Source: Escherichia phage KIT06. From it: a stretch of DNA of 64,000 nucleotides. The stretch lies in sequence record OQ349392.1. One strand, given 5' to 3'. Under the pieces are notes generated by a model. The model made no database searches, was not told the DNA's origin, and worked only from the letters and a program-made list of their open reading frames with translations. Shown here piece by piece: positions 32 through 487 of this stretch (positions are counted from its first letter, which is position 1; each line of letters opens with the position of its first letter). Made by a program: the position numbers and the translations under genes.

Positions 32-487
32 ATGGAATTTAAAGACTTTTCAACGGGTCTTTATGTAGCAGCTAAGTTTTCAGAATTAACACTTGATGCG
101 CTGGAAGAACTCCAGCGCTCTTTACGTGTTCCTAATCCAGTTCCTAGAGAAAAAATTCATTCGACCATATGTTATTCAAGAATAAATGTTCCATATGTTC
201 CATCGAGTGGAAGTTTTGAAGTAGCTTCTTCTGGACATTTAGAAGTATGGAAAACACAAGATGGATCGACTCTTGTACTTGTGCTAGATTCTGAATATCT
301 GCGCTGTCGACACATGTATGCGCGGGCACTAGGTGCTACACATGATTTTGATGATTACACACCGCATATAACATTGTCTTATAATGTTGGGCCCTTATCA
401 TTTAGCGGTGATGTACAAATTCCGGTCGTATTAGATCGTGAATACAAAGAGCCTCTTAAACTCGATTGGGCAGACGATTTAAAATAA
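32..487 (+). CDS. acb1: Acb1-like 2H phosphoesterase (anti-CBASS cyclic-oligonucleotide nuclease; T4 57B homologue)
   Basis: 151-aa ORF with two H-x-T motifs (HSTI, HITL) characteristic of 2H phosphoesterases; sits beside ipI as 57B does in T4. Confidence 0.55.

Follow-up and report, generated by a model that had tools for sequence, protein, structure and literature searches.

Introduction

Acb1, the product of gene 57B of phage T4, was identified through activity-guided fractionation as a metal-independent 2H phosphodiesterase that destroys the cyclic-nucleotide signals of CBASS (Hobbs et al. 2022, PMC9117128). Activity was shown for the T4 protein and nine other homologs, it emerges some 15 min after infection with T4, and in vitro Acb1 blocks the activation of the CBASS effectors Cap5, Cap4 and CapV (PMC9117128). 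The structure of the protein from Erwinia phage FBB1, which has the 2H phosphoesterase fold, has been solved in the apo form (7T26) and with 3'3'-cGAMP (7T27). The catalytic HxT/HxT tetrad of Acb1 consists of H44, T46, H113 and T115, the bases are stacked by Y12, W74, F107 and W147, E141 contacts the adenine N6, and residues 145-152 of the FBB1 and T4 proteins form a C-terminal lid; the H44A/H113A mutant of T4 Acb1 is catalytically dead (PMC9117128).

The gene matters only when the host carries the matching immune system: a T4 acb1 deletion mutant grows normally in the absence of CBASS and has a defect of more than 300-fold on E. coli carrying it (PMC9117128), and in an independent transposon screen 57B/acb1 was dispensable on K-12 and depleted on a CBASS-expressing host. 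Since acb1 adjoins ipI, whose product inhibits the GmrS/GmrD restriction enzyme, the two have been treated as an anti-defence neighbourhood (PMC9117128). Carrying acb1 also has a cost, as Tevenvirinae in which it is intact are restricted by type I and type II Panoptes guard systems, which detect when a decoy cyclic nucleotide disappears; the phages that escape these systems mutate acb1.

Here we analyse a gene of Escherichia phage KIT06 found at the very start of a 64,000-nucleotide stretch of its genome (the window; sequence record OQ349392.1). From the letters of this sequence and its list of open reading frames, an earlier note had proposed the product as a candidate Acb1-type anti-CBASS nuclease.

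Results

The KIT06 gene is nearly identical to T4 acb1

The open reading frame is full length, without internal stops or frameshifts, and its 151-aa product is identical to T4 gp57B/Acb1 (NP_049750.1, from NC_000866) at 150 of 151 residues (99.3%). This is the alignment that the earlier note had suggested as a check on its proposal, with a lack of similarity to Acb1 as the outcome that would have counted against it. The sole amino-acid change is conservative, I51 in KIT06 for V52 in T4 (residue numbers in the KIT06 protein are those of T4 minus one), and it falls at a position that is not named as functional by Hobbs et al. 2022. FBB1 Acb1, like that of T4, has valine at this position, and isoleucine is the common form among Tequatroviruses. 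The features of the locus and of the surrounding region are collected in Table 1.

Table 1. Coordinates of acb1, its functional elements and neighbouring features in the KIT06 window
Feature	Position	Strand	Basis and remarks
3' end of 57A (tail-fibre chaperone)	1..32	+	Frame ends in ...DEAKDEE and a stop; DNA alignment with T4 and NBG2; annotations in T4, NBG2, EP01 and UFV-AREG1
acb1 (T4 gene 57B ortholog), CDS	32..487	+	151 aa, ATG start, TAA stop; ORF list, Pfam, T4 comparison
First catalytic motif, H43-S-T45 (T4 H44/T46)	158..166	+	Motif scan, alignment of homologs
Second catalytic motif, H112-I-T114 (T4 H113/T115)	365..373	+	Motif scan, alignment of homologs
Adenine-contacting E140 (T4 E141)	449..451	+	By alignment; just upstream of the lid segment
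C-terminal lid segment, residues 144-151, including W146 (T4 W147)	461..484	+	Assigned by alignment to the FBB1 and T4 proteins
Promoter-like site of ipI, TTTACA-17-TACTAT	501..529		Promoter scan
ipI (internal protein I, anti-GmrS/GmrD)	560..847	+	Directly downstream of acb1; 93/95 identical to T4 IPI; phrog_4363, internal virion protein
Internal-protein (Ip) gene array	560..847 (ipI), 924..1196 (phrog_7673), 1257..1565 (phrog_2667), 1634..1762 (phrog_8765)
174-aa ORF	2796..3320		phrog_2290, function unassigned
tRNA cluster	3407..4235		10 tRNAs

At the DNA level the coding sequence differs from that of T4 at four nucleotides, which amount to three synonymous codons plus the conservative I51/V52 change, and from that of vB_EcoM_NBG2, which encodes a 100% identical protein, at six codons, all of them synonymous and none nonsynonymous. 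Since every codon change relative to NBG2 and three of the four relative to T4 are silent, the comparison indicates that acb1 is under purifying selection. Three shorter open reading frames overlap the gene, at 93..185 (+), 144..329 (-) and 172..315 (-); since they lie inside a coding sequence that appears to be selected in its own frame, we dismissed them as mechanical products of ORF listing.

When a phage collection was searched by tblastn, a homolog was found in 1,471 records, 445 of which reached 99% identity or more, with a perfect match in at least one. Over the first 25 kb of the window the best matches in the phage collection were EP01 and BMB16, both with some 97% identity across about 90% of that length; the source phage is a T4-like Tequatrovirus.

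The start of the gene differs slightly from the T4 annotation. T4 Acb1 is 152 aa long and begins at the first of two tandem ATGs, whereas the KIT06 start corresponds to the second. At this junction between 57A and 57B (29..34) T4 reads ATGATG, while KIT06 and NBG2 both read TAATG, the first ATG being replaced by the stop codon of 57A. Since these two phages keep the second ATG alone, the comparison suggests that it may be the start used in T4 as well. In KIT06 the 57A stop (TAA, 30..32) shares one base with the acb1 ATG, an arrangement from which we infer that acb1 may be co-transcribed and translationally coupled with 57A.

All known functional residues of Acb1 are kept

Profile searches assigned the protein to the Acb1 family along essentially its whole length. 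The match to Pfam PF23474 (Anti-CBASS protein Acb1) has an E-value of 7.8e-60 and a score of 201.2 bits (curated cutoff, 27 bits), and places residues 8-149 on positions 1-144 of the 144-position profile. Among solved structures, 7T26/7T27 gave the best match, through their Acb1 chain (residues 8-148 on chain positions 1-142, E 5.6e-62), and the KIT06 protein is 67% identical to the 7T26_A crystal chain. From this homology we infer that it has the compact 2H phosphoesterase fold; AlphaFold2, run on the single sequence, returned a model of low confidence (mean pLDDT 43.4, pTM 0.34). FBB1 Acb1 aligns with the KIT06 protein over its full length and with all active-site and ligand-contact residues in register. 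The two proteins differ at roughly one residue in three, and the loop that follows W73/W74 is longer by one residue in FBB1. A second, weak match was to PDB 9Q2G/9Q2Y (E 0.0055), a 165-aa protein deposited as 'Anti-CBASS protein Acb1' that can be aligned across both HxT motifs and shows remote sequence similarity only. An NCBIfam profile search with the KIT06 protein gave no family match.

The earlier note had rested its proposal in part on two H-x-T motifs spaced as in 2H phosphoesterases, and both the motifs and their spacing hold up. The product contains exactly two H-x-[ST] motifs, H43-S-T45 and H112-I-T114, with the histidines 69 residues apart, and H43, T45, H112 and T114 fall on the HxT/HxT tetrad when the protein is aligned with the solved structure of Acb1. 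We then compared nine sequences, those of KIT06, T4, FBB1, RB49, an Aeromonas, an Acinetobacter, a Vibrio and a Citrobacter phage, and the Salicola jumbo phage SCTP-2, in which the homologs are 34-99% identical to the KIT06 protein. Five of the functional columns (Y11, H43, T45, H112 and T114) were invariant in this alignment. Since both histidines and both threonines are kept down to 34% identity, the spacing of the motifs is a conserved feature of the family and not a product of chance.

The ligand-binding residues are also in place, with Y11, W73, F106, E140 and W146 corresponding to T4 Y12, W74, F107, E141 and W147, so that every catalytic or nucleotide-contacting residue named by Hobbs et al. 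2022 is kept in the KIT06 protein. The tetrad, the base-stacking aromatics, the adenine-reading glutamate and the C-terminal lid are therefore all common to T4 Acb1 and its KIT06 counterpart.

The gene lies between 57A and ipI, as in T4

The remaining argument of the earlier note, that the gene sits where T4 57B lies relative to ipI, was borne out by the neighbouring genes. The order 57A-acb1-ipI is common to KIT06, T4, NBG2, EP01 and UFV-AREG1, and ipI is preceded by a promoter-like site of its own (Table 1). A scan of positions 1..2000 for promoters and terminators found eight promoter-like sites, no excess over the 7.5 in shuffled sequence, and no terminators; the window begins 31 nt upstream of the acb1 start, and the scan cannot address the transcription of acb1 itself.

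Downstream of acb1 the region is more variable. Four Ip genes, each of which starts with MKT[FY][KQ]EF, span 560..1762, and ahead of each lies one of two nearly identical leader sequences. The promoter-like sequence TTTAC[AT]-17-TA[CT]TAT lies in front of the first, second and fourth of these genes, and TTATCA-16-TAAAAT was all that the scan picked up before the third. In T4 the locus holds ipI alone, whereas EP01 and UFV-AREG1 have the same four genes as KIT06, and the array resembles the hypervariable Ip locus already known from T-even phages. The product of the fourth gene is 42 aa long in KIT06 and 74 aa in EP01 and UFV-AREG1, because a one-base deletion in a run of adenines (A6 against A7, at about 1729..1735) shifts the frame. 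The gene may be a true pseudogene, or the missing base may be a sequencing error in the homopolymer; an Ip array of this sort, with one gene frameshifted, is among the known polymorphisms of T-even phages.

Further downstream, a 174-aa open reading frame separates the trna.2 homolog from the tRNA cluster, at a place where no gene is annotated in T4, EP01 or UFV-AREG1. Homologs of it are present in 573 phage records, the best being that of BMB16 (99.4%). The KIT06 cluster itself comprises ten tRNAs (Gln, Leu, Gly, Pro, Ser, Thr, Met, Tyr, Asn and Arg) and has no segB between them, in contrast to that of T4, which has eight tRNAs and the segB homing endonuclease gene inserted.

The gene is almost certainly acb1

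With 99.3% identity, the functional residues kept and the same gene order, we carry the putative function over from T4: the gene is almost certainly the acb1 (57B) of a T4-like phage and would encode a small metal-independent 2H phosphodiesterase that opens the cyclic nucleotides of CBASS. The near-identity to a protein that has been tested makes it most likely that the KIT06 protein functions as T4 Acb1 does. Two terms of the original proposal need adjusting. Acb1-type identity stood, on the T4 alignment and the Pfam score, but 'nuclease' is too general for what is predicted to be a 2H phosphodiesterase linearising cyclic di- and trinucleotides, and 'candidate' understates the case, the gene being the known gene acb1.

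A variant of this reading would be that the I51 residue or the 151-aa start alters the substrate range or the kinetics relative to the T4 allele, for example towards Panoptes decoy nucleotides, or that the protein also acts on RNA ends as a phosphodiesterase, in connection with the tRNA cluster nearby. The data give no hint of either, and we regard both as very improbable.

Another explanation is that the protein is a generic LigT-type 2H enzyme, that is, a 2'-5' RNA ligase or an RNA 2',3'-cyclic phosphodiesterase, whose substrates would be RNA ends, as in tRNA repair. Catalysis by two HxT motifs and transesterification without a metal are typical of 2H enzymes, and Acb1 shares both with the LigT/2'-5' RNA ligase superfamily (PF13563) and other 2H phosphoesterases. 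The names in databases also lean this way: the PHROGs match of the protein, phrog_755, is labelled 'RNA ligase', RefSeq gives T4 57B and its orthologs the same name, and one record notes a 'putative RNA 2',3'-cyclic phosphodiesterase'. Moreover, about 3 kb separate acb1 from the tRNA cluster, and the protein has a weak match to the Pfam family 2_5_RNA_ligase2 (PF13563). That match, however, covers residues 80-122 only and lies far below the gathering threshold (12.8 bits where 27 are required, E 0.12); the Acb1 profile is matched at 201 bits. The substrates of the two groups also differ, being RNA ends for the LigT superfamily and cyclic oligonucleotide immune signals for Acb1 (PMC9117128). 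Since the 99%-identical T4 protein cleaves cyclic oligonucleotides and is needed specifically against CBASS (PMC9117128; transposon screen), we consider a generic RNA-end enzyme extremely improbable. We reject the name 'RNA ligase' as an automatic label given at the level of the superfamily, which reflects distant 2H/LigT kinship only.

Finally, this copy of acb1 could be inactive or unexpressed, as if selected by Panoptes-type guards that punish cyclic-nucleotide depletion; acb1-disrupted T-even phages that escape Panoptes do exist, natural or laboratory-derived (Bas43, and escapers of Bas35), and an Ip gene nearby carries a frameshift, but with the acb1 frame full length, all catalytic and binding residues intact, and differences from its relatives that are almost all synonymous apart from the single exchange of isoleucine for valine, we exclude an inactivated copy, leaving this explanation hardly any chance of being right.

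Discussion

The KIT06 gene reads as an intact acb1, and its product would act as its T4 counterpart does. During infection the cyclic di- and trinucleotides that CBASS cyclases make would be bound by Acb1 in a U-shaped pocket, over which the C-terminal lid closes, with the bases stacked on Y11, W73, F106 and W146 and one adenine read by E140. The tetrad of H43, T45, H112 and T114 would then drive the attack of an adenosine 2'-OH on the 3'-5' bond, and the ring would be opened via a 2',3'-cyclic phosphate intermediate to give a linear product with a 3'-phosphate, such as GpAp. With the signal destroyed, the CBASS effectors would stay inactive and abortive infection would be avoided.

The gene, structure, chemistry and role are already known, having been published in 2022 for a protein one conservative residue apart, and the discovery value of the present analysis is correspondingly small. 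Its value lies more in annotation, since orthologs of this gene often stand in databases as 'RNA ligase' or 'hypothetical protein', when the proper name is anti-CBASS phosphodiesterase Acb1.

For the biology of the phage, the consequences run in two directions. Because its acb1 is intact, the source phage is predicted to be resistant to CBASS systems that signal through adenine-containing 3'-5' cyclic di- and trinucleotides, and, for the same reason, to be sensitive to Panoptes-type guards that sense the depletion of cyclic nucleotides.
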